Source: Amoebophrya sp. A120 (taxonomy: Eukaryota > Protista > Dinoflagellata). Taken from it: a stretch of 64,000 nucleotides of DNA. Shown here piece after piece: positions 3,058-59,100 of this stretch. The stretch's first letter is position 1. Each line of letters begins with the position of its first letter. The DNA lies in the NCBI GenBank assembly GCA_905178155.1, contig CAJINV010000012.1, forward strand, positions 1,678,492 through 1,742,491. Direction: 5' to 3'. The notes under the pieces were generated by a model. The model had not been told where the DNA came from and did not search any database. It saw only the letters and a program-made list of their open reading frames with translations. Position numbers and translations under genes: made by a program.

Positions 3058-3133
3058 TTTGAAGCAAATCGCGGCCCAAGCGGTACGGGACGCCATGAGC
3101 GTGACGCCCGCGCAACTGTTCCAGGAGCACGTC

Positions 3134-3369: not shown

Positions 3370-3475
3370 ACGTCCAGACGTGGGCGGAGCTGTGGAAGTC
3401 TGGCGTAGAGATCGAGGGCGAAGAGGAAATCGAGAAGACCGCGATGGCGGGTCTCTATTGGCTGCTCCAGCACTA

Positions 3476-3735: not shown

Positions 3736-4020
3736 CACTATCGGGCCGACACCTACTGGTCCAGCTCCCCCGGCGGAATTGCGACTAACAGCTACAACGG
3801 CCATGTGTTTTGGGACACGGAGCTGTGGATGTTTCCCCCGCTGCTCCTTTGGCACCCGGGGATCGCCAAGGCGGCGCTGCAGTACCGTTTGAACACGGTG
3901 CCGGGGGCGCGGGCGCGGGCGAAACTCGGGAACGACCCCTGGCGGAGTGGGGAGCGCGCGCTGCAGGGTTACAGCACGAACGGGGTCCGTTTCAGCTGGG
4001 AATCTGCCATCACGGGGAAC

Positions 4021-4166
4021 TATGCATTGCAAAAGTATCGTACTCGTATTGCAGTCATGCGTGATCTTAAGGTCAATCAGCATTACAACCTTTATCTCTC
4101 ATGCTGAGGAAATTTGTAATGCATTTATATATACGAGTACGATTTACGATACTTTTGCAATTCATA
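4021..4166. mobile_element. Introner family A
   Basis: TATGCATTGCAAAAGTATCGTA TIR; DR GGAAC. Confidence 0.85.
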
Positions 4167-4229
4167 GGAACGAGCAGACACCGCCGGGGTTCGATACGGG
4201 CGCGGCGGAAATCCACAACACAGGCGATG

Positions 4230-4419
4230 TATGCATTGCAAATGTAAGTATCGTAGCTACTCGTACTGATTGCAGATACGCATGACAAATCTACTCTTCC
4301 GTTTCAAGCGAAAAAATCACCATGACATGACAAATTCCGTTCGTCATGCTATAGACAATTTGTGTTGCAATTTTACCTACGGGTGCCTGCTGGTACGGTC
4401 CTTTTTGCAAAAATGCATA
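4230..4419. mobile_element. Introner family A (diverged)
   Basis: TATGCATT/AATGCATA ends; DR CGATG/CGTTG; removal gives GDVAF. Confidence 0.8.
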
Positions 4420-4478
4420 CGTTGTCGCTTTCGAAGCGGATCAATACTACAAGTTGACGCGCGACTTGGACTTCTTGA

Positions 4479-4697
4479 TATAAAAGTGCGCAACTCCCCC
4501 TCCTCCTCATTTGTATAGCATGAACGGCAATACAAGCATCAGCAAGAATACCGGTTTTGCATGACAAATTCGCACTGGATTAAATAGTGCTTTTTCGGCT
4601 TCCAGGATTTGTCACGCAAACAGTGCTACAAGGCAGCAGCTGGATTTGGGATTTTTGCATTACAAATGAGGAGGAGGGGGAGTTGTGAAGTTTCATA
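4479..4697. mobile_element. Introner family B
   Basis: CAACTCCCCCTCCTCCTCATTTG TIR; DR CTTGA. Confidence 0.85.
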
Positions 4698-5115
4698 CTT
4701 GAACAGTGGCGGCTACAAGGATCTGATCGAGGGCACGGGGCAATTTTGGTCCGAGTATGTCCGATGGGAGGGCGCCGCCGCTCGGGTGCTGAACGTCGTC
4801 CCGCCCGACGAGGAGGCGGGGTACCAGGATGATTCGATATTTACCAATGCCATTGCGGAAGAAAACATGCGGCTGGCAGTGTACTACATGGACCTCCATG
4901 ACAGGAGAGGAAAGTTCCGACTTGATCCCGCCCCAGACAGTGCGACGTTCAGGGAAAAGTTTGAGAGAACCATCGCCGGGCTGCAGAAGACGTATCCCAC
5001 GCTGTACGACAAAAACCGCGACGCCCACTACGAATACGCCGGCTAACAGTGGGGTAGCAGGGTGAAGCAAGCGGACGTCGTGTTGCTCGGGTTTCCCTTG
5101 ACCAAACCGATGGAT

Positions 5116-5304
5116 TATCCTGCGCAAAACCAAAAGTTATATCGTACTAGTACAAAGACAAACTCAAACCGCATGAGCAAGTTCTTCAGCATGAGAAATG
5201 GAAATTTGCAATTTGGATTTGACTTAAGATAGGAGATTTCCAATGCATGACTGCATTTAATAATAGTGCCTACCACGACTGCGATACAACTTTCGCAATG
5301 CATA
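5116..5304. mobile_element. Introner family A (diverged)
   Basis: TAT...ATA ends; DR TGGAT/TGGAA; frame restored on removal. Confidence 0.75.
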
Positions 5305-5433
5305 TGGAAACGCGCTACACGTTTCGGAACGACTTACTTGAGGCTGAAAAGGTCTATAACCCGGAGGCACCCTGCATGACGCACTCCATCCAGATGATCG
5401 GGTGGCTGCAGTTGAAGATGCGGAAAAAGTGCG

Positions 5434-5644
5434 TATGACGGTGCACAACTCCCCCTCCCCCTCATTTGTATAGCATTAAGGGCAATACAAGCATCAGCAA
5501 GATTGCAGGTCTTGCATGACAAATTTGCACTGGATTGTAGTGCTATTTGGGCTGCCAGAACTTGTCATGCAAACAGTGCTAAGAGGCACAGGGTCGATTG
5601 GGTATTTTGCATGACAAATGAGGCGGGAGTTGTGCACTATCATA
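5434..5644. mobile_element. Introner family B
   Basis: TATGACGGTGCACAACTCCC TIR; DR GTGCG. Confidence 0.85.
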
Positions 5645-5718
5645 GTGCGCGGCCCAAATCGAAAAGTCTTTTGAAAACGCTTACGGGCCGTTCCGCGTCT
5701 GGACGGAGTACCCCCGTG

Positions 5719-5879
5719 TATCCTGCGCAAAAGTATCGTACTCGTACTAGTAATTGCATTCATGCATTACAAATTATCTCTTTCTCAAGGCAAACCAGCA
5801 TTACAAATCGAATTTGTAATGCTGTGCTAATTTGTAATGCATTTTTACGAGTACGAATACGATACTTTTGCAATCCATA
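5719..5879. mobile_element. Introner family A
   Basis: GCAAAAGTATCGTA TIR; DR CCGTG; removal gives WTEYPRGGATNF. Confidence 0.85.
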
Positions 5880-6381
5880 CCGTGGGGGCGCCACCAACTT
5901 CATCACGGGTACCGGCGGCTTCTTGCAAACGGTGAGTTTCGGCCTGGGCGGATTGCGGATCCGAGAAAACGGTCTGCTGCTGGAGCCCGGGCTGGTGCGG
6001 AACATGAAGCGGGTGGTGTTGCGGGGAATTTTCTTCCTGAAATGTCGGTGGCGGATTGAGTTCAGCGATGCGGAATTTTTCATCACGGTCATGGAATGCG
6101 GTGCGGATCAGGACCAAGCTGTGATACCTTCCGACGCGGACTTCTATTCCACAAACGACAGGGCGAAGACCAGCACACCGCTTGGCTTAGTCGCCCGGTG
6201 GAACGAGATGGAATCGAATTCGAATACGGATGAGGCGTCTGGAAGTCCTCGTCGTGTGAAGATCTATCAAAAGCAGCACTTTTTCGAACTCCGAAGGGAC
6301 CTGCGGCTAAACAATTTTCCAAACGAGAACCAACGGAGGAATTACCGCCAGGTCTTACTCCAGCACGAACAAGATGCCCCG

Positions 6382-6625
6382 TATGGCGTTCTCACACGTT
6401 ACATTCTCAACTGCTCCATGAATTTTTCATGAAGGAATGGCAAACGTGAAAGGGGAGACCTAGCGCGTCTTGCATGACAGATTTAGCACAGATTCTCAGC
6501 CTGTTTGGCTCTTCGAGAATTTGTCATGCGAAGGAGCTTGTTGAAGTTGATCATGTAGCTATTGACGGCAATTTCGCATGACAAATCGTGCCACAGTTGA
6601 GAATGGAACATTTGAGAGTCCCATA
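6382..6625. mobile_element. Introner family D
   Basis: TATGG..CTCACACGTTACATTCTCAAC TIR; DR CCCCG. Confidence 0.8.
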
Positions 6626-6703
6626 CCCCGGCGTGGCCGGATGTAGGAGGGATTGCAGAAAAGAAAATCTGCACTCTCGAGGAAATAGACACGGACTACT
6701 TTG

Positions 6704-6864
6704 TATGAACTGCAAAAGTATCGCACTCGTAATAATTGCAGTCATGCATTAGAGATCTTTTTCTTGAGGCTAATCCGCATGACAAATTTTATTTCTCATG
6801 CTGAGGAAATGTAATGCATTTTTTTATAGATACGCATATGAATGCGATACTTTTGCAGTTCATA
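6704..6864. mobile_element. Introner family A
   Basis: Perfect TATGAACTGCAAAAGTATCGCA TIR; DR CTTTG. Confidence 0.9.
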
Positions 6865-8351
6865 CTTTGGCGGTGACATGGGCATCTGGGAAACGGCCGC
6901 GACCGCAGAGGAGTGTCGGCAAATCTGCGAACAAAACGCCGAATGCGAGCTGTTCACGTTTTTGAGAGGCCAGGTGAGAAACAATTGCCTGTTCAAACGC
7001 GGGCTCGGAGCGGAAAAGAGGTATAATAGCGACACGGCCAGTGGGCGTTGCGTGTTTGAAAAGGTGGATTACGAACTGGTGCAGGAGCCACCGGCGGCAG
7101 CGGAGGGTTTTTCTCCAAGTAGTGCAAGCAGCAATGGAAATAATGTTCCGGGACTAGAAGCCTCCGCGGCAGGTTTTTTGGAAAAGAGAAAAATGGAAGT
7201 AGATCGTGTTGTTGAAAATACGGGCGAGCGGATGGCTTCGCAGAGTGGTGATGATGATGAAAAGCGCAAAGAAATAGGACTAGCAGAAGATGCAATCAAG
7301 TTAGAGGACGGAAATAGTGCGCACGTCGAGGAGAAAAGGAATCAAAGCGAACAGGACCGGATGCTTCCCGCGGTGGGCGCAGCTAGAAGAATAAAAAGCC
7401 GTCCTCCGCTAAACAATCTTCCCTCGGCCGTGCAAGTAGCAGACATGACCGCGCCTTCATATCAAGCAGAAATTTGAAGAAGTGATATGATTTTGATTTT
7501 AGAAGTAAAGTGTTATGCATAACAAGAACTAAGAAAACACAACCTGGTCGTCGGCTATGTCGTGGGATCAACGTTGTTCGGGTGCGTTGAGAACTTCGAG
7601 AGCTGCACCAAGTAAGAACCAGATCTACAACTCCTCACCCTTGTGGATTGATTTAGCACTACTGACATAATCACTCAAGTCAACCTTGTGCGCCTCGTAC
7701 TTGATGAGTTCGCTGCAGCTCGAACAACAGCTCTGTAGACTTCGGACGAGAGAAGAGTGAAGTCGAGGTAAAGGGATTCAGACTCTTCGACAAAACCCTG
7801 CGAGTAAGAGGAAAACCGTAAATTACCGTATCGACTCTTGTTTTTTGTCATTTTCATACAAATAAGCTTTTCGTCGCACCCGCCGAGGACTGCAGCGAAA
7901 TAATAAAAGTTGTAAAGCTACCAAGACTACATATACGGAGCGACAAACTCACGTTCATACAAGATGTTTGTTGCCGCGCGTCAACATACAAACATCACCA
8001 GGACGCGTCCAGGTTGATGTGTGGCTCCCTCAAATAGCTGGCGCGGAGGCGGGGAGCACGAAGTAGAATCTCTTCAACACCACGTCCCTGCTGCAAGAGG
8101 GTCGTCCTCGTGATCGGAGCGGCTGCAGCGGCTGCATTCTTGCACGACAGCCAAAGCGGCCGGAGCGGCTGCACTCTTGCACGACACACACATCAAAGAA
8201 AATATCTACTACAACCACCTCAGTACAACTGCGCCGGTTGTCGCCGACAAAGATTCTCCGAGAAAGAATCTCAATCTGTACAACAGTCGACCACGCGACG
8301 TCCTCACATCTCCCTCGGACCATGACGGGTGGACTTCTTGGGTCGAGGAAG

Positions 8352-11300
8352 ATGGACAAGGACAACAAAAGGCCACTGCCGGTGACCCCTGCCCAGCACT
8401 CCCGCGGAACAAGCGGCGGAACGACCTGGGGTCGGAGCACCGCATCCACATCCTCCGGAACCAGAAGTCGCCCTAGAAGCTCGACCACTACTTCCACTTC
8501 ATGCTGCGGCCGCTGTTGGTGGTCCAGAAAGAACTACATCGTCAAGAACACCAAGACGGCTCGGCTCCTTTCCTCTTCTATCACCCTGCAGGTGTTCTTT
8601 CTCCTGCAGTCGTTCTATCTGGTTCAGCATGCGGATCTTGTACACGGAAGACGACGCATGCTGCGTCACGAGAACGACCGGGGGAAAGCAAAAGAGGAAA
8701 TTGGGTACGAGTTCCGCGTATCCTGTGCACAAGCATCGTACTCGTAGTAATCGCAGTTATGCATAACAAATCGCCTCCCTAAGCTAAAACAGCATGACAA
8801 ATTCCATTCGTCATGCTAAGGAAATTTGGAAATGCGATTTATACTTCTAGTACGATGCTTTTGTATTTCATACCACGAGAAGAGCGACCTCTTCCCGCTA
8901 GGCAAGGTGGTTGCAGGTTTGTGGTCTTGGGTTTTCGGCTCGGGTACTTCTACGGTGGAGGAAATGTACGGTTTTAATGTTTCTACGAACGGCACGGGCA
9001 CCAACGCGACCCCAAGCAACAGCACGGCGCCGAATGATACAAGTACGAACATTTCTTCCAACGACACGACAGGGCCCATGGTTGGCGCTACAGCGAGCGG
9101 GGACTACATAGCGGCTGTTGGCGCCAACAATTTGGCAACTAGTCCGACGTACGCTGGTGCTACTACCAATGCCGGTCATCTTCCGAAGAACGCGGGCATC
9201 TTCACTGCTGGGAACATGACGAGTGGAGGTCGGACCAATGGTACCATGATGCCTCTCGCCGCGAGCAGCAGTACAAACATCACAACCCCGGCGGTTTGGG
9301 GCGAGCAAGATGCCATTCGTCGTGCGACGAACAATAGTACTGGCGCCACTTCCAATTGGACCACAACGTCGAATCATACCGCCATCAATTGGACCACCAC
9401 GATCAATTGCACATCCTCTACAGCGGCAGTGTCAGGTATTTTCAGTGAAATTCTGTACCATTTTTTATTTTTTCGACTCTCAGGTTGCTGCACTGCTACT
9501 GGTCAGCACGTCTTGATGTTTGACGCGTTTGTTTTTATTTTTTCAGTGCGCGGTGCTGGCATTTGCATTTTGATTTTTTCGTTGCAAATATGAATCGGTA
9601 TGTTCCGAACTGAGGCACTAGATCAAAACTGTTATTGAAGAAATCCTACGTTCTTGAACAGGGCCGGATCCGGCCCCGCCGCAAGACGATGGCTATCTGT
9701 CCTGGGTTGGCGTAAATCTGGTAAAAACGAGCAGCAACACGAGCGTCACACATGATCAACATCCGGAAGATATGAAGATTCTCACGACGGACACCACTGC
9801 AACACCATTACCACTTGTCGTGACCTCCGGGGAACAGCAAATGCGGGAGGAAGCTGCGAACACAACAATGGTGGTGACGCTGAACAAACTACACCGTGAC
9901 CACGAGCAGTCGTTCACAACGCCAACGAATTCAACTTCCCCAAACACGAGTGCTGCTGCGACAGACGAGACGGTGGGAAAATCAGCGACGAAACGGCACG
10001 CGTCTCTGTTGCCCATCATGACAAAAGAAGTTGAAGATCCTGAAGTTGAAGTTCCTGTGGTACTACGAGATGCTTCTGTTTTAAGCAGCGAAGTAGAAGA
10101 GACACCTGCCTCCACGCAAGAAAACTCGGGTCTGGATGAGGACCACTCTGTCAGTGAAGACATCGACAAACCGAGGCCGGTCGGGGACGAATCTTCGCAT
10201 TATTTGTCCACGCAGGCAAAACTGTTCGAAACATCTTCTGTCTTCCCCAAAAATCTCCCTGATGTACCAAATTCCACGTCGTCCAGTGCTTCAGTGGACG
10301 AATTTCGCTTCATTTCGCCGCACCATGTTGTCTCACAACAAGATGAGGAATCGATTTACTCCTTCCTCGAGTTGAGCCAGGAACTAAATCATCACAACGT
10401 GGTTGCTGCAGAAGAAGATGCTGCGGTAGCAGGACGACAGGAGGGTGTGAAGACCGGTCTTCCACCTGCTGATGCTTCTGTTCGTGCTGGTTTAGACTAC
10501 GTTCCTAGCAAAAAACAAAAATCGAAAACGAGCGCAGCTTCCAAACTTCCACTGCCGTTACATGACGAATCGCCAGCGACCGCGGGAAATGCAGAAGATG
10601 AACACCCGATCGAAGATCCAGAAGAGTTTGACGCCACCTCTGCGCTGTCACAAAGCGGGGCGGAAATTTTCGCGGGGGAGAAGCACGTCGAACAAGGAGG
10701 ACACTCTGGTGAGCGGTCGGAGTACCATACAACTGGAGCAACAGCATCCGAAAATGGAGCTTCCGACAGCGTCGCAGGCGCGGCTGCACATGATCAGTCG
10801 CAAGAAGATGAAGCCGGGCAGAACGTCGTCGGGGTGGAAAGTATTTCGTCTCTGGACGAGCATGCCGAGCTTCCTCCTAGAAGTGACGGTCATGCTGGTG
10901 AAGCTGCAGAAGGGAAGAACGCGGAATCGGACGGTAGTGCTGTGATTGAAGAACCGAAGGACCACGACCACGACGACGAGAAAACTGGCTTTATTACCCC
11001 TGCTTCGGAAGGGAAAGAAGAAACTACCGTGCCCGGCGGAGAACGGGTGGAACGAGGTGCGGCGGAGAAGATGCAGGAGCAAACGAAAGGCGAAGTGGTG
11101 GTGGAGCGTAGCAGCTCGTCCGCAGTTGAGGTGAAACCTGCAGCACTTAGTGTGGCGCCTCCTCCCGGCGGTCCTGGCATATCGAGTCTCGTCTGGGGTG
11201 TGGGGGGTGGTTCTGCTCCCCGGCCTGCTTATGCCGAGTCTCGGGGTGAAGCACTTCCACTTTCTCCGACAACCGGCGGTGCTGCTGCGCTTGGCGTAGT

Positions 11301-14300
11301 TACTGGCGCTGCATCCCTAGGGCTAGGACATGCACGTGTACGAGATCCAGACCGAACGCGAACACGTGTTGTACGTGTACGGGGTGGCCCGGGAGGTGCA
11401 GACGCCAGTGGCGAAGGTGGACGTGGAGGAGGCGGCGGTGGTCCCCCCGTAGGAACTGCTGGCGGTACCCCCGATTCTCATGAAGGTTCTGGTCCTCTCG
11501 CAGATGAAGACCCCAATGCTGTGGTGCTCTTTCTGGGCTACGTGGATTTTGTACTTTCCGAACTCGCGGAACAGCTCCTCGTCGAACTCAAAATCCACGA
11601 AGCGGAGGAAGACGGGAGGAAACCCGATTCTTCATCATCTCTGGATGCTGCAGAATCGACGCCCGCCACGGTATCCAAATCATACACGTGCTCAGACCTG
11701 CTCGAGGTCGTGGAATGGTGCTGGGGATCTTTTCTATGCAAAAAATCAATTTGGGTGTTCGGGCATTCACGGTTTGCATGCCCGGAGTCACTATGTTCGT
11801 GTTCGATGGAGGTCTTCCTCTTCAATTGTTTCTATCGACTTGGCAATGTTAGTGTTACAGTAGAAATAAAAGTACTTACTTAACAAAGTACTTCATCAAC
11901 ACGCGGTGTGCTTCGACGTGTAGTTGATGTATCCATTATCCGTGTTCAATCACTGTACTAGCTGTAGCTGTACCTGGAAGCCGGGTCTATGTACAATGCA
12001 GGTGTGTGTCGAGATTGGTGATCAGCATGACGATTACTTGGTTGCATGAAGAGCTGCGCGCCATTCTTCGCTTCCTGTCTTTCAGTGCAGAAGGGCGAGA
12101 TGCAGCTCGGGAGGCACTTAAATACCACACGTCTCCCCTTGTTGTGCGGGTCTGAGCATATTTCTGTTGGATACTGGGACACCGAGCTTGTTAAGGTCGT
12201 CGAACTAAGTATCAGGCTGAAAAATGTTAATGTTTTCCTTGTGCAGTTTCGGTAGAGACTTCTGCATTTTTTGTGGGTACGACTACCAAGAAAGAAAATT
12301 GTAGGCAAGCCCATCTTTGCGTGCGAGATTCACCAGCCCCGACCTGCTGTGGATGGGGGCTTTCTAAAGGCGCCCACCGCTTGTGCACGTAGGTTCGTTG
12401 CATGATGACGGTCGCGCAGCTGATCAGGCCATAAATTGCTATATCTAATGAACAATTCATGCTGGCAGACAGCTAAAGTCATTCAGCTAAAGTCAATACT
12501 GTGAAAAAAGCTCGGCGGGCTTCTTTTTCTACCTGATACTCAAGGGCCCATCGGACAAACCAGTCACAGTCGTAGCCGCGACCGGAACGGTAGCTGCGAG
12601 GGACATGGCGGCAGCATTGTGGTATGCATTGCAAGTCTGTCTGGGTCTGGAACAGGGCAACTTGTGATGCTGAGTCCGAAGTAGCCAAAAATCTGTCTTG
12701 CAAAGAGAGCAAAAAGTGTGCGCTTTTTGTTTCTTGAACAAGAGGGAACTTCTCATGCAGGCTCGGCATGGAAATGCCTCAGCAGACCTTGTCATGCTCT
12801 GCGTGCAGTCCAGTCCTTCTCCTTGTTCTTGCAGGTTCAAAAAATACATGATCATGACATTCTTCCAGACCCAGACATATTTGCAGTTGATATCCGGTAC
12901 GCGATGACGATTGAAAAGGATTGGGTACAGAGTATCGCGGGCAGCATCGACCTGATCGTGGAGCGCCTCAAAAATCTCGATCGGAAATACCCGATGATAG
13001 CCGCTGCGTTCGCCGCCACGGGTGCAGCGAGTCTGGTGCTGATTCCGGGCGCCTCGGCTGCACTCGGTGCTGCAATTGCAGCAGCACCAAAAGTCGCAGA
13101 GGTCGCACGGCATGCCAATGTAGCTGCACACATTGGTCTCATCGTGTCGAGGATGATTGCAAAACTACCCCATGTACCGGGCTTCCCTGCCTGGACCGAT
13201 CTCCGATCGAAGGTTCTTGCTCAGGCGGCGCGAAGAGACGCAGGGTTCACTACCATACAGGAGGAGCTAAAGCTAGCAGCTGATGAGCCAGAATCTCCCG
13301 CTGCGTCATCTACCACGACTGCGACGTTCACACTAGCGCTAGCAACTGGTGGCAGGACCATTACGGAATGGCTGGTCGACTCTTTGGTTCTTCCGGATGA
13401 TTGGGGACTTGCGTTTCCTGTATCGCTTGAGGCAAGTTTCCAGCCGCATTGCTTCGCAGCTCACGCTCGGCTGCCCCCAATCATCGGCAAAACAACACCT
13501 GCTATCGCGTTCAGCATTTTCTTCCACACCGTCATCGTAGAGAAGGTCTGGGACTTTTTCATGGACGCGATCGTAAAGGAGCGCATCTTACACCCCCTGT
13601 ACAAATGGGGTGCCTGGGCGCTCCTTTCTGACGACACCGCGCAGGTTCTCTTCAATCCCGACAGCGTCGTCTACCAAGACGAGGTGCGGGAGCTTGATGA
13701 CCTCATTGAAAGACTGAAAGCGAAGGATATCGAACCTGAGGCAGCCTTGGAATTCGCTGAAAAGATACATCAAAAGAAAGCCGCCAAACGCGAAGCGAAG
13801 AGCTCATGGAGAACATGGCTGGAGGAAAAGGTTTTTGATTATGGTCCAACAAAGGAAAGAGACCCGAACTACACTGCCTTACTGGGCAAAGTGTTGGAGG
13901 GACTGAAAAACGACCCGCAGACCCCAAAGGAAGCGATTGGCGAGGACGTCCGCGAAGATTCTCCATCTACATCACCCCGTGAATTGCTTCGCGAAGATCA
14001 GCTCTTAGGAATGGGGAAACAGCCGCCGCAAAACTTCAAGATGGTCGAGGCTCTGCCCCTATCAATTGCAAATATGTCTGGGTCTGGAAACTTGTGGCGC
14101 TGCTTGAGAAAAGCGAGGACGCCAACGCCTCCATTGAGTGGCAAGCATGACAGGTCTTGGGGGTGCTACAGTATTGTCTTTTCTGCATGGCACAGCGAGC
14201 TTTGTTTTGCAAGACAGAACAGTGGGGCTTTTGTGTAATGCGCAGGACAGACTTGAGAGTCAGACGAGCATGACAAGAAACCCTGGATCTTTCCAGACCC

Positions 14301-46945: not shown

Positions 46946-49900
46946 ATGTCTCGCTTGTGCAGCTCCAACCCCGTTCTAGCATCATCTGCTTCTGATCTAG
47001 AAGCTGGAACCTCCGCAGATGATGGAGTTCTTGCTGGCCGAGTAGGTGTACAGCAACCACGGCGGGAAAAATATCAAGAGCCCGCTGGAGCTGCTCACTG
47101 CGGTTCGGCAGCCTCGTCTGCGACGCCCGATGAGGTAGATTTCGATGCACCAAGCTCTTCTAGTCGTGATGAACGAACAAGTGGAGGAAGAAAGAGTAGG
47201 CCGCGTATACTGACCACTCGTGGAAGACGTCGGGGCAAAAACGGCAAAGTACTAAAGGCTTCGTCCGAAGGTACGATGTCATTGACCACCAGGAAGATGA
47301 AGAGGAAGTGGAAAATAAGAATAACCAGCACACCAGGAACCACTACACGGCGTGGCACAACTACTAGACCCTTCTTTATCTCAAAGCCTACCCACGACCT
47401 GGCACGCTGTCTGCTTTCCTCCCTGTCCCTCCTACCGGTTTTTCTTTTCTCCACGACGATATTTTCATCCCTGTTCGCTGATGGCCGGCTTGGGAGAAGG
47501 AGGAAAGTGCTTCCAGGTGCGAGATCTAGTACTGCAACTTCTTCGCAGGATGAAATAAGGACAAGAACCGCTGTTCTTGATGCGGCGGCAGCCACAATTC
47601 CTGCGCCACATGAAGATGGTCGTCGCGCAGGCCAACATCCCTCCGGAGAAGATGCACAGCGATCAGCACAGGTTTTGAGTAGCTACTTGCACGACAACGT
47701 AGCTAAAGTAGACCCTGCGTCATTAACTACAGCAACTCCACCAGGCCAAGGCGAGCGTTTGCCGTTGTCCGAAGATTTTTCTTCGACGTCCAGTATAAAG
47801 CTTCACAGCGCGCCGTGGTCGTCTCCTCAGCCGGCAAGAACTTCAACTCCCCTCAGCGACGACTTCGAAACTTTGAGTACCATTGCACCTTCCAGCACAC
47901 AGAGTACCCCCATCGCGCGACAAGTAGCGCCAAGGATTGTAGGACTGGCAGGAAGTTCAAGTTCCTTTTCGACGTCTACCTCCGGGACGACTTCAGCCTT
48001 GTTTTCCGGATTTCCTTCATCTTCGGCCAGAAATGGCGTTGCTTCATCCTCCACCTCGCCAAGCTACGAATTTTTACCGGGTTCTTTCGGCACACCAACC
48101 CCATCACGCAGCCGAAGCGCCACGGAGGGTAGTGAAGGGCAACCGGGACGATTTGGTGTTGAGCACGAGGACGTACTCGACCAAAAGGGACAAGAATTAT
48201 TTCATCACCTTTGGTCAGATACTAGTCCGGAGGAGGGAGATGAGGAAGTGGGGAGCTGCGACGGGGATGAACAGCAGGAAAGCAGTCGAAAGAGGAGAAG
48301 TACTACCACCGACGCTGCGTTTCGTTCGGCACTCGACAGTACAGTAGTGATCCCGTCCGCGGCTGCGGAGAGAGTCAGCAGACGCGCTTTTCCCGGTCGG
48401 GGACAACAACATCCGCAAGGAATAAGCGCTCTGGCTTTTGAGCACGACAAGGAGGATCTTGGAGCAGAAATAAAGCCGGAGATAGGGTTGCCGGAACGAG
48501 ACTCAACATTCTCATCTGCGGCTTCATCGTCCCACAAGGACCAGCAACGGGTACCAGCACAACTACTCCCACCGGCGCTTCTTCCGTCTTACACCGTCGC
48601 TCGCTCAAGAGCCTTTTTCCCCTGGGGCCGGCGCACGATAGGGACCACGAGTGATGATTTCTTTTCAACAAGACGGACCTCATCTTCGACGTCCAGAAGT
48701 GGGGTGAATTATGCGGAAGGTGAAGCTGTTGTACACCATCAAGACGAGGAGGACCAGGAGAACACCACTAGTTTCAGTTCGACGCAGCCAGAGGACCTAC
48801 ATAGACACGACGATGACCAGACGAATGTGTTAAGGCGACGAAGAAGAAACACTGATGTTGTAAACGAAGAGCAAATCACGAATCGCATCACCGGCTGTAC
48901 TGCACTAGATAGGGATGGTGCGGACACATCTTCTAATGGTCCTGTGTTGGCCCCCGCTGTACCAGTTTCAGCTCGTGGACAACGGCGTAGTAAAACTAAT
49001 TCGTCCCTGTTTTCCTTGGAGCAGTCTACTTCCAAGCAGGAGCTGCAGCTGCAGAACATGACGGATTTTATTTCCATTGGGAACCTCGTGCAGAACCCAA
49101 GTCACCCTTTTCGCCTGTTTCCCAGCTTGTTCCTCTCCAATGTGGCCGCGGCTGGTGCTGCTAGCAGTGGCAGTGCTGCTAGAAGTGCAGCAGCTTCGTC
49201 GTCCAGTCCAAGAGCAGATCAAAAGGACCCGCCAAGTGCAAGTTCTGCTGCTCTTGCTGAAGCTGGTACGAGTTCATCTAGGTGCATCACAACAGAGGAA
49301 CGGTCGAAGCCGAGTTATACCTGTGATCGCACTAAGGAGCGTGCTACAGCCGCAGCTTGCGGTTCACCTTCAACTACAGTAGACGAGGATGTGATTTTCT
49401 ACGACGCAGTGACAGAACCAGATGATGCTGCGGACGCCGTAGACTCTTTAGAAGTACCACATGCTGTGTCACTACCAACTACTAGCGCGAGTGTTGGGAC
49501 GAGGACCACCACTGACACAGGCAGCGAGAGGACGCAGCGAGAAGAATTAGGTGGAGAATCTTCGGAAGAACTAGACAGGCGACGACAGTTACAAGAAGAA
49601 GTAGATGAAAAACTTTCCTCATCTCCTGGTGAAGATATTATCAATTCGGAGGCCGTCTTCTTCAATGACGAGCGAACGGATCTCTCTCAGTCTCCCCTTC
49701 CCAGCTCAAAATCGTCCAGCAACAGTTTGTATGAGGAGTTGGATTGTGAGCTGCAATATGAACTGCAAAAGTATCGTACTCGTATAAATGCATTACAAAT
49801 TTCCTCAGCATGAGGAATAAGATTTGCAATGCGGATTTGCCTTAAGAAGAAGATTTTTGATGCAAGACTTGCATTTATACGAAGGAATGCGATACTTTTG

Positions 49901-52900
49901 CACAGGATATGCAAAAAAAACTGGAGCAGCAGCTCGAGGACTGGAGAGACCAGACGCTTTTCGAAGAATTTCAAGAAGGGCTAGTGCTTGCCGAGGGAAC
50001 GGGAAGGATAACGCAAAAACAAAGAGAAAGCTGTGCGACGAAGTTGTCACGCGGCGAGGACAGAAAGGTGGGCTATTCCGATCTAGTCCTTGGGCCGCAG
50101 CTGTGCGGGGCGAGTACTGGTGCTGGGGTGGAAATGGGTCGACGTTTAGAAGGTGTGTCTGGTTCAACAGCAGCAGCAAGAGCAACATCAACCAAAAACG
50201 AAGACGACACGACGACTACTTCAGCTGAACAGGATGACTCACTGCCGCACGACGACAAGTCCCCGCCGCGCAAGGCTTCTCCGCCGTCGGCGGAAGAGCA
50301 AAGGCTATTAAAGCTGTGGCAAACCATCTACTGTCCGTCCCCGTTGTTTTTTCGACAAAACACATCAGCCTGCGCGGAGGTCACAGCTGCGCTGCATCAA
50401 AAGTCATCTCAGACAGATCATGAAAGAGCAGGCTCTGGTGGCTCTAGATCATCCCCCTCCTCAGCGTCGACCTGTGATGTTAGTGGTTCAAGCGGAAGCT
50501 CGCGTGAACAGGCAGGAACGACAAGTACTAGAGAGCACCCAGCGAAGGCTTATTCGGAATCGGAGGTGCAGGAAAAACAAAGTTTGTTTGATGCCGACGT
50601 ACCAATGAAAGTAGGGCAAGTAGAAGAAGGACGACAGCCACCACCAGCACCATCAACAGCACAGCCGCAGCGCAGCGCCTGTGAAAAGACCACAGCGTCC
50701 TCTTCTCAAAGACCACCGCAGGAGAAGATCTTGCCATGCCAACACCGCTACATGTCGGAAGCGTTTGAAAAGTCGAAGCAGTTGAAGATTTTCCTGACCC
50801 GCATGGCAAATCGCCTCCGCATGTGGCACTTTCTCGGTCTCCAGGCGACTGTAAACGAGAACGATGTATGCCCGATCTGCTTGGAACCGGTGCTGATAAG
50901 CCGCGGCGGTGGGAAGATGCAGAAGGATAAGACGCATGACAAAGTGACAGACTCTTCCTCATGCAGCAATGGTGCCGAGGATGATATCTCCGAGCTTCTC
51001 GTGTCGTGTGCCTCCAGACCGGTCGCGCACGTGATGCACGCCAGCTGCTATGTGCAGCATGGGTACGAGCTCGGGGGCAAAAAACAACTCTACCGGAAAC
51101 GGAGTCGTCGGTTTCTCCGGGACTGCCCGGTCTGTCGCGAGTCGAAGTTCCCGCGGATGAGAGGACGCGTACGAGAAAATGACGTGGCAAATAAAGCCGG
51201 TCCACACATCTTTAATGATGCGAAGGTGCCTGCTGACGACAGCGAGGACAAGAAAAAGACTTCTCTATCAAGAACCTCAGAAAGAGAAAGAAGGTCGGAG
51301 GTGCAAGAAAACCTTAACACCAGCACGGAGAAGAATAACCAGGCCGCCAATAGTTGTGTCTTCGAGTCCGACTCGAGTTTGCTAACCGCGGCGTTGAAAC
51401 GGGCTCTGTGTTGCAATCGGCGGGTGGCTCTGTCAAATTTCGAGAAGAAAAAGCTGCTGCTGCTGCAGCAAGCAAGGCTGGAGAAGGAGCAGGCGCAAGC
51501 AAAGCTGGCAAGGGACGAGCGGGCGGTGAAACAAGAAAAGGAACTACACGAAGATCATACTGATGCTCTTTCGTCGGAGCGAGAGCGTGATCTTGAGAAC
51601 CGCCCCGCTTCAGCCTCCTTTTCGTCCCGGTTATTTTCGCCCAATAATTATGCGAGCAATGTGTGGCGCCTGAGCAGCAGCGCAGCTAGCAGCTCTGGAT
51701 CTGCAGCTACAACAACCTCCGCGATGAACAACGTCGAACTGGATCCACCAGCATCCGAAACCATCCTCCTCCGCACCCGCAGCACCGCCGCTGAAGAAGT
51801 GGCGACGCGGTGGAATAACGTGATGGAGGTGTTTCGCAACGCACTCTCGACAATTGCTATCCAAGAAAAAAACTGTGTTAGTGTAAACTTTCTTTGGCTG
51901 ACAGCATCTGCTCTACATGACAGAGAAAACCTGTCATGCGTGGCTTACAAGGGAAAACACACAGGAAAAGAAGACCGCATGGTTGTCTGGCATGACAGGT
52001 GTAAACAGTTTTGCATTTTCTGCATTACAGAGCTACACTTAGACAGTTTTTTTCTTGCATAATTGCGGACGAAGACAGCGAAGACGAGGATAGCTGGCTG
52101 GAAAGCTGGAGCTCCTTTCTCGACGTCGTTCCGCTGGTATGACAGTGCACGACTCCCGCTCGTCCCCCTCATTTGTCATGCAAAATACCGAATCGTCCAC
52201 ATCTTGCGCTTGCCTTTAAGCACTCTGCGCATGACAAGTTTTGGACGCCCAAACGCCCAAACAGGACTACATTCCACATTTACGGACTTGTCATACGAAA
52301 GCTACGTTTGTGGCATTGCTTCTGTTCCTGTTGCTGCTCATGCTACAGTACAAATGAGGAGGAGGGGGAGTTGTGCACTCTCATAGCTGGCGCCTGCTGC
52401 TGCTCCGAGCGAGGGAACAAGATCTACAGTCCGCGGAGGTGCAACGGCGAATGTAATGCCATCGAATAACTTGTTGAACTACAATTTGAATGATTTGGTT
52501 TTTCAGCAACTGCAGGACAGTCTTCTAAACCACAATCGTAACGACCACACTAACATAAACATGCCAACGAACGCAGCTGACTTGGACGAAACCGCCGGGA
52601 TTTGGGGCGGTTTGGCCCTGATGCCGTTCGCGGACGCGATTTCTAATCGAGGGACAGCACAGGAACAGGACATGCCGTGGTACCAATTCGGCGGCCCGCC
52701 GGTGCCATATCCTGTGCAAAAGTATCGTACTCGTATTGCAGTCATGCATTACAAATTTTTTTCTGAAGCTAAATCCGCATATAGATTTCTCATGCTGAGG
52801 AAATTTCTAATGCATTTATACGAGTGTATCGAAGAAAAAAACACCATCACAGTCACAAAATTCAAATTTTCAAAATTTTGCAGGAGCTGAACAAAAAATT

Positions 52901-54845
52901 ATTTTGATTTTCAGGTAAGAAAATACTTTTCAATTCTCGAATGCGAATGTATTTATTTTTGTGTTAGCTATTTGGTTATGTCAAAAATGGCGGTTTGAAT
53001 AAGCTAGTTAAGAAAGAGTTCTGAAGACAAACGATCAGCTTCCAGCAGACGAAGCTTGGTAGATGGGGTTGTCGCCCTCGTCTGGCCCCAGGTGGGGCCA
53101 GAGGGCGACAACCCACACTACCACTGTTCGTCTGCTGGAAGCTGAACGATTGTCTTCAGAAATCTCTCTTCTTAACTAGCTAGCTTACCATGCGAGCTTA
53201 ACTTAATCATGCGAGCTGCTTCGGCAGTTTTTACCGTCCTCTTGCTATCACAATCACTCCCTTTGGCTGCAGCGGATGTCGTGCAGTCGATCGTGGACCA
53301 TAATGCAGAGGCTTTCAGCCCCGAAACCAATGCGGCTGGCGGAACGGCGAAAGGTATCTACTTATATTGCTTTTTTAACAACGGGCTCATTTGGTGCTTG
53401 CGCCTCGAGGTCTCTTGGTGCTTGCACCTCGGGGTTTAGGGTCGGAACGTTCCCAGCACCGCTGGAAGCACTGAACCTGAAGGGCGTGCACGCCTGGAAG
53501 GATCCGAGCATGGCGCTTTACTAGCGCCTTTTCAACGTTTACCTTCATCCTCCTTTTTGTTTCTGCTGTTTTCCTTTTCTCGGGCCCTACTGGCACCAAG
53601 CAGTTTCTTTCTGCGGCTCCCGCCCTTCCTGCTGTCGGTTTTGTCCTATTTTAGTTTTTTTCATATGTGCACATGACGATGTGTACATGATCATGCGTAC
53701 CGCGGCCTTCTCCTTTTTCTGCACGGGCAGCTTCCCTCCAACACATCTCCCCTCCACGTCTCCGTCACGTCCCGGATGCCGACCCGGTCCAGCAGCCGAC
53801 GCAGGGGTTTTAGGGTTTAGGCTTTTAGGGTTCTCCTATTTTGATCTTAACTAGCTAGCTTACCGCCAATAGCCAATATCATAAATCATCTGCTTCAAAA
53901 CTCAACATTCAAAACCAGATACAACAGGTTCGGGAGTGCCGCGAAAGTCCAACGAAATTTTAATTTTGATGGTCAAAAATTTTGAAAATTTGAATTTTGT
54001 GATTGTGATGGTGTTTTTTTCTTCGATAGAGTGCGATACTTTTGCAATGCATATGCCACGACCGGCGCAACAAGGTGCTGGTGGTTCCACCACTGTAGTT
54101 CCCCCAAACCGACCAGTGACTTTGACCACAACCAATCTTCCGGATGACCAAGAACACAATTCCTCCTCGTGGAGCTACACCCAGGTCAGGCGAGGCTTGT
54201 TGAACCGGCTAGGATTTAGCCGTGGCAATGTCAATGCTGCTCAGGTAGAGGATGAAGCTAGAAGTACGGCTAGCAGTACAACTCGGAACGAGCGGAGACG
54301 AGCAGGCAGTTCGCCGGAAGTAGATGGACCTGCTCCCTCTCATCGCGAACTCATTATGCTACTCAACTTGAACCACGGCACTGCTGCGGCGGGGACAGGA
54401 GTTGCACCAAGCGACAGCCCGAGAAACTACTACCAAAATGAAAATGTTTTTGACTCTGCATCTTCTGCTGCTTCTCCGCACCCACTGCAGCCGATGCCAA
54501 TTCCGGTCCGGGTCCGGTTGGAACATGCCTTGGTTCCGGATGACGTGTTATGCTCTGCAAAAATGTGGCGCTCGTAGTACTTACTCGTTGCAATTCTGCA
54601 TTGCAAATCGTATTCAGATAGGAAAATCAGCAAGACAAACTCCGATTGGTTTTTGAAAAAGTTTGTCATGCGATGTTTACTAGCTGCGATATTTTTGCAA
54701 TGCATACGTACGAGCCCTGATCCAGGAAATTCATTCCGATGACGTGCGGTATCTCTGGCTCGCAGTGGAGGAAGCGCCAATGGTGTCGGTCGGATGCCTG
54801 GCGTTTTTGACGGTCCTACTAGAAAAAGCGTGGAGCCCGATGTAG
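46946..54845 (+). CDS. Large low-complexity RING-H2 finger protein (putative E3 ligase); 5 introners; start uncertain
   Basis: CPICLEP..CASRPVAHVMHASC..CPVCR at ~50869-51138; exons join in frame across five introners to TAG at 54843-54845. Confidence 0.75.
49757..49909. mobile_element. Introner family A
   Basis: TGCAAAAGTATCG TIR; DR TGCAA; joins the 955-aa and 717-aa ORFs. Confidence 0.9.
51858..52061. mobile_element. Introner family E
   Basis: TATCCAAGAAAAAAACTGT TIR; DR ATTGC. Confidence 0.85.
52138..52385. mobile_element. Introner family B
   Basis: TATGACAGTGCAC TIR; DR GCTGG. Confidence 0.85.
52708..54053. mobile_element. Introner family A with nested 1.2-kb TIR element
   Basis: TGCAAAAGTATCG TIR; DR TGCCA. 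Confidence 0.85.
52827..54028. mobile_element. 1.2-kb non-autonomous TIR element (TAT...ATA, 5-bp TSD)
   Basis: ~50-bp TIR TATCGAAGAAAAAAACACCATCAC...; TSD GAGTG; internal 180-bp hairpin. Confidence 0.85.
54549..54706. mobile_element. Introner (family A-like)
   Basis: TATGC..TGCAAAAAT TIR; DR CGTGT/CGTAC. Confidence 0.75.
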
Positions 54846-56172
54846 GAAAATGTGACTGAGAAAACTTCTGGTCTCATGAAAACAACGACCCGGAAAGAAC
54901 TCAAACTCTGTCTGTACTAAGGTGATACATATGTTTGTTGACATAGCCTTCTGATGATGCTTCATCATGCATGGCATATTGATCTGCTCCGAGCCGGAAA
55001 ATGATTTTCGTGAGGACGAGGATGTTTTTCCATAGCATACGCCATTCGAATGGTTTACCAACCCACCTGCCGGCGCGGTGTGAAGGAACAAGCACGCGCG
55101 ATGCAACCGCGTGAAGTGCTGCCGGTTGTACGAAAATAGGAACATTGTTTCATGGGGAATAAAAGGGGAGTTGTCATTGAGAGTAGTTTCTATCAAGAAT
55201 AAATGCGCAATAATGTTGCTGCGACCACTACAAGAACTTGCTGTTTCAAACATGACACATAACACATATTGTGTAGACATAGATTTCAATTTCTGGCGTT
55301 TTGATCGACTTTGACAGTTTTTAAAAGAGTTAGCGTACGAGATCAACAACGCGATTGGATGAAGCATGGAAAATACTTAAAATGTACGACTGAAGTAGAG
55401 ATACCAGTCTCAATTGCAATTGCAAATCGAAATCTGGATACATAGGTAGCACGACCAGTAAGACCACGAGGCTATCGAATGATTTAGATTTTGTTTTGTG
55501 TCGTTCCTGCCATCATGCTAGTTTTTTGATACGTCCGCAAAAAATATTTCTGGTGCTGCAAAAAGGAAAACGCTGGCACTGCTTCAGAATGGTTAATACA
55601 GTATGTAAAACCTCCACTGGTTCTCCTTCCTATCCCCGCGTCCTCTTCACAATATCTCCATAAGCTTGGCGCTCTGGGAAAAGGATGTAACTGACCAGTC
55701 TGAATGTCCATCATCTGGATGATCGATTGATAGATTTACAAATGCATCAATTCAATATCCCCCAGCCCTGCATCGGGCTTGCATAAAAGTGCACGTGGTC
55801 GTGTATATCGCGTTGGATCTTTCGTTTCTTCAGCATAGGCTGGCAGGAGTGTTTCAAAAGGTTTTTGCTCCTATTAGGACGGATGTAGTCGTGTTCCAAT
55901 TCTACCTAATAGAGCGTCTCTGTTTCTTCAAAAACGAGGGAGTTGTACTAGTGAGCCACGGAAAAAGACTATCGAGTGGGACAGATAAATCAAAATTTTT
56001 GCCGCTTCTTCCAAGCGAGCCATTTCTTTGAGTGGGCGATGAAGTTAGTATAGTGGTCCTACCAAGCAGATAAACTCCTTCAAAACGACATCAGAGCTGT
56101 ATCTTGTCGAAAAAGTAGAATCCATCCGCTGCTGAAGCTAGAGCTACTCGTAACAGAAAACTACCTCACAAG

Positions 56173-59100
56173 ATGTTTTGCGGTGGTGCCTCCGGTCCAT
56201 ATACGACGGATTTGCCGCAGCCAAAGCCGTGTCGCGAAGGCTGGAAGCAGACGGTCGATCGCCAGCCGCCGTATGGTGTGTACCAACCGGGGACGGCAAA
56301 CAAGGACCTGGGGGTACGGAAATGGAAAAACATAGAACAGAAGCCGTCATGTGTTGTCATGCAGGTGTCTGCAGCAGTGTTACGTTTTGTCATGCAGGGA
56401 CTGCATTTGATTTCGATGCTTCTTGACAAGACTTTTCACTCCATACTCTCTCGGTCCCATCCTGTACAACAGCGCGTACAAGGACACATGGAAGTTGCCG
56501 ACAGGTATCAGATAGATCATGAACTACCCGATCTTCACACTGAAAAGCTGTCATGCGGAAACAGCATGTTGCAAAGATCTTGTGATCTTCATGTTGAAGA
56601 TCCACTAGCTGCAAAATTAAGTAAGGTAACTAGCATCACATCGAAATCACTATATCAGGCCCCGTCTCCGGCCACAAGAATATCATCGAGTGCTGGCACA
56701 ACGCCTGCCTGGACTTATGAACTGCAAAAGCATCGTACTAGTATAAGTCGCATGACAAATTTCCACAGCATGAGAAATAAAATTTGTAATGCGGATTTAA
56801 CTTCAGAGAGAAACTTGTAATGCATGACTGCGATTACTACGAGTACGATACTTTTGCAATGCATAGGACGGCAAGGACGGCAACGCCATGGGGTATATGC
56901 AGTGCAAATATGTCTAGGTTATTTGGAAGGTTGCGCACTTGTCAAGCTTAGTCCGGATCGTATAAAAATTTGTGTTGCAGGATTGCCAAATGTTGTTCAC
57001 TTTTGACCAAGTTGGGAGAGCTTTTCTCATGCAGGATAGGCATGATCACAGAGGTCTCGCAGAGTCTGTCATGCTAGGTCCTGCATTGCAGCCTGTCATG
57101 GGTTATGGACAACCTGCATGACAAGTCTCGCAACCTGCAGACCCAGACATATTTGCATTTGATAGGCTACCGCAAGCTGATCGACATCGTGTACGAAAAG
57201 GACCCGATATGCGAAGAAAAAAGTGTTACCGTTACACATTGTGTTGCAGGCCAAGCAAGACAGACAATCTCTGTCATGCCGGATATGCATCATGGGAGCC
57301 TAGTTTGTTCATAGATACGCGTTTTCCCTTGTTATGATCTCTGCATTGCAAGCTTTTCCTCTCATGCAGAGAAATAAATCTGTGTTGCTAAATTGTTGAC
57401 AACAAATGTGTAATTGTAAAACACTTTCTTCCTTGGATACCCAAAGGACGGCAAAGAATACGAAAAGCTGCACCTCGCGAACGAGCTCACCTACGTCACC
57501 TACACGCAGTTGCTCGACCGTGTGAAATATCAAGTGCAAAAGTATCGCACTCGTATAAATGCATTACAAATTTTCCCAGCATGAGAAATGAAATTTGTAA
57601 TGCGGATTTCCCTTAACGCCTAAATTTGTAATGCATAACTGCAATTGGTACGAGTGCGATACTTTTGCACAGGACATGAAGGCCTTCACCATGGGTTTGA
57701 AGGACTTCACTGGTGAGGACTTCTTCGCGAACAAAAACTCCCGCGGCGTCATTTTATGAGAGTGCACAACCCCCCCTCACGACCCTCATTTCTAATGCAA
57801 AATACCGAACCCACCTCTTGCCTCTAAGCACTGTACGCATGACAAGTTTTGGACGCCCAATCAGGACTACAATCCATGTCCGGATTTATTGTCATGCAAA
57901 AGCTACATTCATCCTCATCGTGGCATTCGCATTCCTTCTGTTGCTGCTCATGCTATACAAATGCGGGGGACGGGGAGTTGTGCACTGTCATACACTTTCG
58001 CGGACACGCAGATGGACTGGATGTGCTCCGTATGGATTGCAAAACTGTCTGGGTCTGGAAGATTGCAACTTGTCATGGTAAATCTGAAGCATGCAAAAAT
58101 CTGTGTTGCATGAGTGCCAAAAGCTGCAAACTTTTGAACGAGTTGGAAGGAAGTTTCTCATGCAGGATAGGCATGGCAGAGACCTCGCAGAGTCTGTCAT
58201 GCTAAGTCCCGCATTCCAGACCTCATGGGTCATGGAAAATCTGCATGGCAAGTCCGCAGCTTACTTTCCAGACCCAGACACTTTTATTTTTGATACTCCG
58301 CGCTCGGGTTCTTTTCCCAGGCACTCCCGATCGTGACGGTTTACTCGACTTTGGGGGAGGAGGGACTGAAGTTCGCGCTGACGCAAACCTCCGCGGAATT
58401 CGTCGTCACCGACGCGAAACTGGCCAAGGTGCTGGCCAAGGTGCTGCCCTCGGTGAAATCCACGATGAAGTACGTGGTTTTACTCGGCGACGCGAAGAAG
58501 TACTGCAGTGCGGAGGTCATTATCAACTGCAAATATGTCCGGGTCTGAAAACTTGGCATGCATGTCAGTGAAAAATAAGCACACTGCAATGCACCGCCAA
58601 GCATGACAGATTTTTTCGTGGCTCCTCTGTGTTGTGGATTCTGCATGAGATGAAGCTGCGTTTTTGGATGGCAGACGCAAGGAGCTGCTCTACTTCGTGG
58701 CCCCGCAATGCAGATCTCGGAGTCATGCCAGACTAGCATGACACTCTTGCTCTTCTAGACCCTGACATATTGGCAGTTGATAGTCATGAAGACGTTATCC
58801 GAAAACGTCAAAGTCGGAATTTTCAACGAACTGGTAGAGATCGGTGCGCCAAAGATCATATGCAAATTGCAAAAGTATCGTACTAGTAGGAATTATTGCA
58901 TATACAAATTTTATTCTCAGAAATAACACAAATGGAATTTGTGATACTGATTCAGCTACTAAAGTAGATTTGTCATGCGAGGCTGCAATTTTTACTACGA
59001 GTATCTGATACTGTTGCAGTGCATAGATCAGCGAATGGGCGATTAAACCGGTGAGTTTGGAGGAAACGGCAGTGATCATGTACACCTCGGGGACCACCGG

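Follow-up and report, generated by a model that had tools for sequence, protein, structure and literature searches.

The transposon-derived introns of the dinoflagellate Amoebophrya sp. A120 are cut at one fixed register. The machinery is likely the major spliceosome in a relaxed form, able to work without a G at the first intron position (G+1) and without an AG at the 3' end. Within the window, the whole 64-kb stretch of DNA analysed here, the evidence supports a junction after base 4 of the 5-bp direct repeat (DR) flanking each introner element, 1 nt before TA(T) and 4 nt after ATA, which gives introns of the form N-TA(T)...A(T)A-NNNN. The mRNA retains DR bases 1–4 of the left copy and base 5 of the right copy. 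Of the 66,565 A120 introns with RNA support, about 65% are non-canonical (PMC7789003). New here is one register, together with a code of four bases, for introns earlier described without a clear splice signal; our literature search found no paper stating the fixed 1/4 rule.

The introner elements of A120 were published as elements with TAT-N7-AAA inverted repeats, a hairpin and direct repeats of 3–5 nt across the junction (PMC7789003). Farhat et al. (2021) reported no clear splicing signature and sites variable relative to the hairpin, with a border that 'remains unknown' (Fig. 3 legend; PMC7789003). The exon translations of the window are 100% identical to proteins of A120, and its elements carry an inverted repeat that opens with TAT, followed by about 7 variable bases and an A run, as in that definition. 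Each element (TAT...ATA) is flanked by 5-bp DRs, which are not due to chance. Across nine element pairs chosen by inverted repeat alone, blind to the DRs, 41 of 45 DR bases are identical, against a mean of 13.4 matching bases in shuffled controls (0 of 10,000 shuffles reach 41), and a repeat length of 5 bp scores best (0.91 versus at most 0.33 for lengths 2–4 and 6–8). The elements are repetitive, with a summed contig depth in run X5 of 1e4–3e5 at several of them versus about 45 on unique sequence. They are missing from contigs of run X1, which is probably RNA, and present in those of X5.

Comparison with five database proteins revealed that the 1/4 register is compatible with all 35 of their non-GT-AG introns. 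A junction after base 3 (register 2/3) fits 30 of them and fails at 5 sites, retention of the whole left DR (0/5) fits 28 and fails at 7, and retention of the whole right DR fails at 13; whole-DR retention is thus rejected. Seventeen of the 35 sites are informative and all 17 agree on one register, with a log10 likelihood ratio of 5.8 for a single register over uniform placement; the other 18, with a perfect DR or a synonymous difference, carry no register information. A GT-AG placement compatible with the protein is absent in 35 of 40 introns. An earlier note on this DNA had proposed a fixed junction within the DR, 1–2 nt before TAT and 3–4 nt after ATA, and these data narrow it to 1/4.

All genes and introns located below lie on the + strand. 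The GH65-family gene (362–7479) contains 12 introner elements, and 10 of its introns are covered by P0008 and P0007. The element at 4230–4419 sits between a left DR CGATG (4225–4229) and a right DR CGTTG (4420–4424). Asp in P0008 places the junction of the corresponding intron (4229–4423) after base 3 or later; the protein reads GDVA, as predicted from the left A, and the respective column in 55 homologs holds C 36, D 13, T 6 and V 0. In intron 5115–5308 (TGGAT/TGGAA), Glu in P0007 takes base 5 from the right copy. Paralog A (8322–15804; P0065, 1807 aa) and paralog B (36443–45521; P0066 from aa 27) have no Pfam match and seven introns each, for paralog B within the modelled part. Both were expected to encode the same Arg, and both proteins read EFRE, a reading obtained only if the junction follows base 3 or base 4: Arg of P0065 places that of intron 8718–8876 (CCGCG/CCACG, element 8719–8872) after base 3 or later, and Arg of P0066 takes base 5 of intron 36747–37172 (TTCCA/TTCCG, element 36748–37168) from the right. 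Elsewhere in paralog A, P0065 locates the decayed intron 11671–12177 (CACGG/CTGGG; after base 3 or later), has Lys at 12209–12542 (CTAAG/CTCAA; base 5 from the right) and LWY at 12622–12896 (TGTGG/TCCGG; after base 3 or later). In paralog B, P0066 allows only base 4 or 5 at three decayed introns, 37672–37957 (3' end AGA, CCAAT/TCTTC; Asn), 40985–41203 (GCCGC/CACAC) and 41882–42322 (TTGCG/TCCTC), and base 3 or later at 41282–41706 (GAGTC/GTCTC; Glu). Two further decayed introns permit a junction after base 4 only, namely 44093–44467 (T-TAC...ATA-AAGC, ACATT/AAGCG; Met) and 37990–38179 (G-TAT...ATA-GTCC, TCAGG/GTCCC), where an in-frame GT-AG alternative, 3 nt shorter, is left unused. The latter and the GT-AG intron 9436–9661 of paralog A are homologs by both position and sequence, so that one intron is GT-AG in one paralog and GT-CC in the other. 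The register in these three genes is read from proteins only.

Nucleotide-level junctions came from X1 contigs, and all three fall after base 4, one read directly and two deduced from piece ends and one length. The 5' part of an AMP-binding (acyl-CoA synthetase-like) gene (56173–61183) was modelled with 16 introns, 12 non-GT-AG and 4 GT-AG. The model equals P0001 aa 1–603 and matches 11 of 11 contig landmarks, every one of which requires exactly 5 retained bases; the end of GT-AG intron 59601–59777 was placed from the length of the X1 contig and is not an independent landmark. The joint 56313>56450 is read directly in X1, with no letters compatible with both sides, and P0001 and the A25 protein P0002 both read GL there. 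The intron it removes (56314–56449, G-TAC...ATA-CTCT) has a fully decayed DR (GGGGG/CTCTC, 0 of 5 bases matching) and is spliced in register; the splice site is therefore not determined by the sequence of the DR. At intron 54548–54710 (CGTGT/CGTAC, element 54549–54706), an X1 contig matches through 54547 (left base 4), with no differing letter, and then departs; keeping the whole left DR at 54544 would yield TGA, as the earlier note had pointed out. The same contig restarts at 55044 (right base 5) after the decayed intron 54842–55043 (G-TAG...ATA-CGCC, CGATG/CGCCA), and the 131 letters between the two pieces equal 54711–54841. The unspliced X5 contig over 54100–56742 has the same DR mismatches and no other letters. 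Further sites in the AMP-binding gene are read from P0001, which has G rather than C at 56715–56869 (GGACT/GGACG; base 5 from the right) and I rather than T at 57754–57996 (CATTT/CACTT, element 57755–57992; after base 3 or later). The left T predicted for the latter DR at 57750 is borne out by VIFADT in P0001 and VIYADT in its A25 homolog P0002; the coordinates given earlier were correct, and all four examples hold.

X1 is classed as RNA by a software guess and is the sole source of nucleotide-level junctions. Among the joints listed are one X1 joint and eight X1 pieces, and the introns at 56715, 56895, 57207, 57527 and 57754 are not among the base-level junctions. Rare forms are lost from assembled contigs, which could hide minority junctions. 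The protein models were probably built on transcripts of the same strain, thus not being independent of X1, and P0065 and P0066 come without a source label. Every discriminating site lies on the + strand of this single 64-kb window. When the rule was applied to six minus-strand introns chosen by eye, the frame stayed open in five, with no discrimination between registers, and one gave no candidate ends.

Position counts over 37 introns revealed four invariant bases, U+2, A+3, A-7 and A-5 (37/37 each). Position +1 is free (G 16, T 9, A 7, C 5), and we found no consensus in the last four intron bases, including the last two. An AG located 3 nt upstream is bypassed in 11 of 11 introns, including two whose donor is GT. 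A+3 is unchanged in four cases with a mutated pairing partner and A-7 in three. Pairing of U+2 with A-5 is possible in all 37 introns; folding of 36 introns predicted a terminal stem (P>0.5) for 26 of them, and positions -14 to -10 are still complementary in most elements. The decayed intron at 54842 has no predicted terminal pair, yet is spliced in register. GT-AG introns of the same genes start with GTA in 5/5 and GTAT in 4/5, and the introner donor corresponds exactly to this local GTAT once the G is removed. A is found at -5 in 5/5 annotated GT-AG introns, and is absent from unverified minus-strand GT-AG introns judged by eye. No CTRAY-like branch consensus was found upstream of the conserved A in the position counts. 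The intronic copy of DR bases 1–4 drifts towards pyrimidines (18 vs 4, p=0.004, post hoc), and the 3' exon starts with a purine in 22 of 35 cases. In Table S4 of PMC7789003, all 9 predominant non-canonical classes of A120 have T at +2 and 8 of 9 have A at -2; the former hints at the same signal genome-wide, whereas only 5 of 37 window introns have A at -2, a gap that mixed strands would explain.

These observations enable us to propose a putative model, in which a relaxed spliceosome is the most likely machinery. The element inserts with a 5-bp target duplication, as its DRs show, and the signal is N|UA(U)...A-N-A-NNNN|. The 5' site may be recognised as a local GUAU donor that lacks the G. For the 3' site, counting may start at the conserved A-N-A where the terminal hairpin has its foot, a hairpin that would bring both intron ends together. 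Because 1+4 equals the length of the duplication, excision leaves no scar at any target sequence; given the strand-symmetric element ends, removal would work in either orientation of insertion. Shared machinery is suggested by the GTA donors (5/5), the paralog switch between GT-AG and GT-CC, and the intron 56505–56658 (G-TAT...ATA-TCAG, ACAGG/TCAGG), which satisfies both the GT-AG and the introner rule. A120 possesses 83 of 89 spliceosomal proteins, with U1 snRNA not detectable (Farhat et al., PMC7789003). The earlier idea of a site set by distance from the stem base and not by sequence holds in part: the 3' site looks measured, with no tail consensus and the AG bypassed, but the four invariant bases, the match of the 5' end to local GT-AG donors and the incomplete occurrence of the terminal stem speak against it.

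More tentatively, introns of the form N|UA(U)...A-N-A-NNNN| may have a splicing system of their own in A120, either distinct from the major spliceosome or a strongly rewired form of it, with a 1+4 stagger matching the 5-bp duplication of a transposase. Rather doubtful is a non-spliceosomal nuclease plus ligase, of the kind suggested for the nonconventional introns of Euglena, that keeps the same register by cutting at distances of 1 nt and 4 nt from where the terminal hairpin begins; the staggered cut proposed in the earlier note would be of this type. This reading is in line with the dispensable G+1 and AG, the universal possibility of a U+2/A-5 pair, the predicted hairpins, the absence of U1 snRNA from A120 searches (PMC7789003) and the Euglena sites, which the accessible part of PMC12501133 describes as set by spacer lengths from a paired motif. 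However, A+3 and A-7 stay constant despite mutated partners, 10 of 36 introns lack a predicted terminal pair, the donor resembles adjacent GT-AG donors, and a homologous intron changes type between paralogs. It is unlikely that splicing is spliceosomal with the hairpin a mere transposon relic, A-7 or A-5 serving as branch adenosine and the acceptor lying at a fixed distance from it without AG. Such anchoring would account for an A-7 invariant whatever its pairing, for a register maintained without a predicted stem and for the skipping of an AG very near the branch point, and constant spacings of comparable length between branch point and acceptor have been described, as the available portion of PMC2483917 indicates; against it stand the missing CTRAY-like consensus and the complementarity at -14 to -10 in most elements, and a paired stem would need melting for U2 binding.

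We consider it very improbable that the register merely reflects junction sliding within the DR, or an artefact of aligners or RNA editing. Farhat et al. call the sites variable relative to the hairpin, with possible editing at 4% of boundaries (PMC7789003), the stretch is covered by contigs and not raw reads, the raw-read runs X7 and X8 giving 0 and 4 matching reads, and at 54548 only, a whole right DR plus one A-to-G edit gives identical letters. Such editing cannot generate 54842 or 56314, however, and slidable DRs suffice to account for the published variability, while the 17 informative protein sites and three contig sites share one value. Removal from DNA by programmed elimination is largely refuted and hardly credible: ciliate eliminated sequences resemble these elements in their terminal inverted repeats (TIR) and DRs, and X1 is RNA by guess only, but X5 carries the unspliced form and the X1 contig lacks GT-AG introns too, as expected of mRNA.

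The window elements share strain, inverted repeats, direct repeats and hairpin with the published A120 introners; the difference is that here one register and one code of four bases hold for each intron tested, whereas the paper has variable borders (PMC7789003). According to PMC12501133 and PMC11282704, the nonconventional introns of Euglena likewise have ends like TIRs and target-site duplications (TSDs), no GT-AG, a fixed spacing from a paired motif and a 5' spacer shorter than the 3' spacer, and their register was established by discarding slidable junctions. In those sources Euglena, an unrelated lineage, uses a CAG/CTG motif placed 3 nt and 5 nt from the splice sites, and its 3' exons open with a purine. 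A120 instead has TA(T)/A(T)A at distances of 1 nt and 4 nt and does not require a purine. Position counts over the 37 introns showed no CAG at +4 to +6 pairing with CTG at -8 to -6; the A120 spacers are fixed at 1 and 4 nt instead of 3 and 5, alike in working but different in code. The TSD-co-opting introners of Micromonas, Aureococcus, Symbiodinium and Polarella, as described in bioRxiv 2020.10.14.339549 and PMC11282704, are all MITE-like, with TIR and TSD, and become introns. Class 12 of Polarella even has a 5-nt TSD with the junction after base 4 (NNAG|G), like A120. Those introners need a near-canonical G[TCA]-AG from element or target, whereas in A120, where most introns have no protein-compatible GT-AG that element or TSD could supply, neither G nor AG is required and the target sequence is therefore free. 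Fritillaria also has transposon-derived non-GT-AG introns, reportedly removed by a modified U2 spliceosome, but their preferred AG-AC/AG-AT ends, derived from a TAC target, form a different code (PMC11282704 and PMC13326754, in their accessible parts). In Giardia, Trichomonas and Yarrowia, a short, constant spacing separates the 3' site from an adenosine motif upstream of it and there is no polypyrimidine tract, as in A120, but these retain CTAAC and a terminal AG, both missing from A120 introners (PMC2483917, in the portion available). Of the canonical U2 signals, the introners keep U+2 and A+3 in 37/37, but G+1 in only 16/37, and they bypass AG.

In summary, the rule predicts every border, corrects annotation, and singles out bases for mutagenesis and adenosines that could be examined as branch points. 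It explains how introners can spread without GT or AG in the target and would permit scar-free insertion in almost any gene, and the paralogs show a route by which such introns turn into, or arise from, GT-AG introns. If A120 does run its own splicing system, the transposon end would be a complete, orientation-free splice signal that makes insertion at any coding site silent; intron gains in the tens of thousands would thereby be explained, and the system would represent a convergent counterpart of the Euglena system.

The genes of the window are eukaryotic and multi-intron, with exon translations of 100% identity to Amoebophrya sp. A120 proteins. Each intron consists of a short element that has terminal inverted repeats TAT...ATA and is flanked on both sides by direct repeats (DRs). 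These elements belong to the introner class of A120 as described in the available text of Farhat et al. 2021 (PMC7789003). In nine left-right pairs picked by inverted repeat alone, 41 of 45 flanking bases are identical, against a mean of 13.4 upon shuffling (41 reached in 0 of 10,000 shuffles), and the score is high at 5 bp only among the repeat lengths compared. The DRs are genuine. Inspection of sequence and translation confirmed coordinates and residues for the four DR examples (4225, 57750, 54544 and the pair in paralogs A and B) from which an earlier note had placed the splice junction between DR bases 3 and 5. At 52708–54053, a short introner contains a nested 1.2-kb TAT...ATA element (52827–54028) with its own 5-bp repeat GAGTG. 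The words TTGCA, GCATGAC/GTCATGC and GCATTACAAA, possible protein-binding or hairpin motifs, recur inside many introner elements and older introns. TAT/ATA ends are absent from the long, almost perfect inverted repeats and the scattered GC-rich repeats at 33988–35282, which have related blocks near 17550–17960 and 35500–35800.

Models with 40 introns reproduce five database proteins letter for letter: the acyl-CoA synthetase-like P0001 (aa 1–603), P0007 and P0008 of the GH65-family gene, paralog A (P0065) and paralog B (P0066, from aa 27). GT-AG is possible in five introns and impossible in 35, six elements being taken from the proteins rather than the motif scan. For each intron, we listed all same-length placements yielding the database protein and scored the compatible offsets from TA and A-N-A. 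Register 1/4, in which the intron starts 1 nt before TA and ends 4 nt after ATA, is compatible with 35/35 non-GT-AG introns at the protein level, compared with 30 for 2/3, 28 for 0/5, 23 for 3/2, and 22 each for 4/1 and 5/0. Seventeen sites were informative and 18 uninformative; introns 37990 and 44093 allow only 1/4, and a junction after base 3 is excluded at three more. According to the accessible methods of PMC7789003, the gene models were probably built on same-strain transcripts, being RNA-based and not independent of sequencing run X1. Outgroup support is limited to P0002, the A25 homologue of P0001 (GL, I), and one GH65 column, where V occurs in none of 55 homologs. We conclude that register 1/4 very probably holds for these introns. 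The GH65 gene also carries an in-frame TAA at 5044–5046 where homologs have Tyr (P0042 EYAGYQD), at which the database splits it into P0008 and P0007, and a frame change in its first exon (362–1481); a decaying gene, an assembly error or recoding would each account for this.

Four sequencing runs were compared with 54100–61200: two raw RNA runs did not contain this stretch, and X1 (RNA by guess only) and X5 were compared as contigs. The introns are absent from X1 contigs and present in X5 contigs, one of which covers 54100–56742 with zero differing letters. One X1 contig matches up to 54547, base 4 (the left-specific G) of the left DR CGTGT, without reaching base 5, and resumes at 55044, base 5 of the right DR CGCCA; the 131 letters between are exactly 54711–54841. 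Thus, two junctions lie after DR base 4. A second X1 contig directly lists the joint 56313>56450, where no letter fits both sides; this intron reads G-TAC at its 5' end and ATA-CTCT at its 3' end, and its DR copies, GGGGG and CTCTC, have nothing in common. All 11 listed coordinates of this contig are reproduced by a model retaining five DR bases per element. The alignment tool sets ambiguous joints leftmost, and pieces stop at 58515 and 60648, directly before perfect DRs. In 61184–64000, the acyl-CoA synthetase gene extends beyond a long GT intron, just before which, at 61183, an X1 contig has a loose end. The intron contains purine-rich open frames, which gave no Pfam match within 61261–62439, and may represent a large mobile element. 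A long low-complexity gene at 46940–55100 shows, by eye, a RING-like Cys/His pattern near 50870–51140.

Among 37 non-canonical introns (the 35 protein-tested and two contig-only), U+2, A+3, A-7 and A-5 occur without exception; three introns deviate at +4 and four at -6, and +1 and the final four bases are free. In 11/35 introns, the last A of ATA and the next G form a frame-preserving AG 3 nt upstream of the used acceptor. This AG is used in 0/11, two of which have a GT donor; the 3' site therefore appears to be set by distance rather than by a scan for AG. In the intronic copy of DR bases 1–4, purine-to-pyrimidine differences number 18 versus 4 in reverse (p=0.004), and C occupies -2 in 9/13 (p=0.009), both comparisons being post hoc and unpolarised.

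The five GT-AG introns of the same genes all start GTA, four of them GTAT, and intron 56505 meets both codes. Between the paralogs, one homologous intron switches type: the copy in A (9436–9661) is GT-AG, and the copy in B (37990–38179) is GT-CC and carries ATA at -7. The acceptors differ by 3 nt, and P0065 and P0066 differ there by one residue. The two paralogs also carry introners of different families at 8719 (A) and 36748 (B), whose insertion points fall within one codon pair and are offset by 2 nt, a parallel gain at nearly one site. On the minus strand, an intron-rich gene (20230–23450), one exon of which gave no Pfam match, has old introns that start GTAT, some obeying the 1/4 rule.

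Judged by sequence, the donor of the rule-type introns looks spliceosomal. Because of this donor, the dual-code and type-switching introns, and an A120 spliceosome described in the available part of PMC7789003 as near-complete, with U1 snRNA not detectable, we somewhat favor a relaxed spliceosome as the putative machinery. A separate Euglena-like machinery is the less likely candidate. According to the accessible text of PMC12501133, 3- and 5-nt spacers from paired CAG/CTG set the sites of Euglena nonconventional introns; the A120 elements work alike, yet fail that family's motif tests. A purely branch-anchored site, recalling the fixed branch-to-AG spacing of Giardia, Trichomonas and Yarrowia (PMC2483917, in part), would leave no role for the terminal stem, which is predicted for 26 of 36 introns folded, and seems improbable.

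Unlike the A120 elements, introners of Polarella, Symbiodinium, Micromonas and Aureococcus recruit near-canonical dinucleotides, as reported in the available portions of bioRxiv 2020.10.14.339549 and PMC11282704. The text at hand of PMC7789003 calls the splicing signature unclear, with sites varying relative to the hairpin and a border that "remains unknown"; its Fig. S23 legend puts inverted repeats 1–5 nt from splice sites. In its Table S4, T at +2 in 9/9 predominant A120 classes agrees with the rule, whereas A at -2 in 8/9 is not obviously in line. A fixed register is unstated in the accessible parts of the literature searched, including PMC12130899, PMC11282704, PMC11453091, PMC12005148, PMC12787238 and PMC13326754; logos in Farhat Fig. 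3 and S19–S23, PMC12130899 datasets, PMC9860276 or subscription papers may already show part of the rule. The feature is real and its elements already known, the splice rule being apparently unreported. In the proposed mechanism, a non-autonomous DNA transposon would insert and duplicate 5 bp, and excision from 1 nt upstream of the element to 4 nt downstream of it would take out exactly one duplication's length besides the element. Since 1 + 4 nt equals that length, the original coding sequence would be restored, leaving the target sequence unconstrained.
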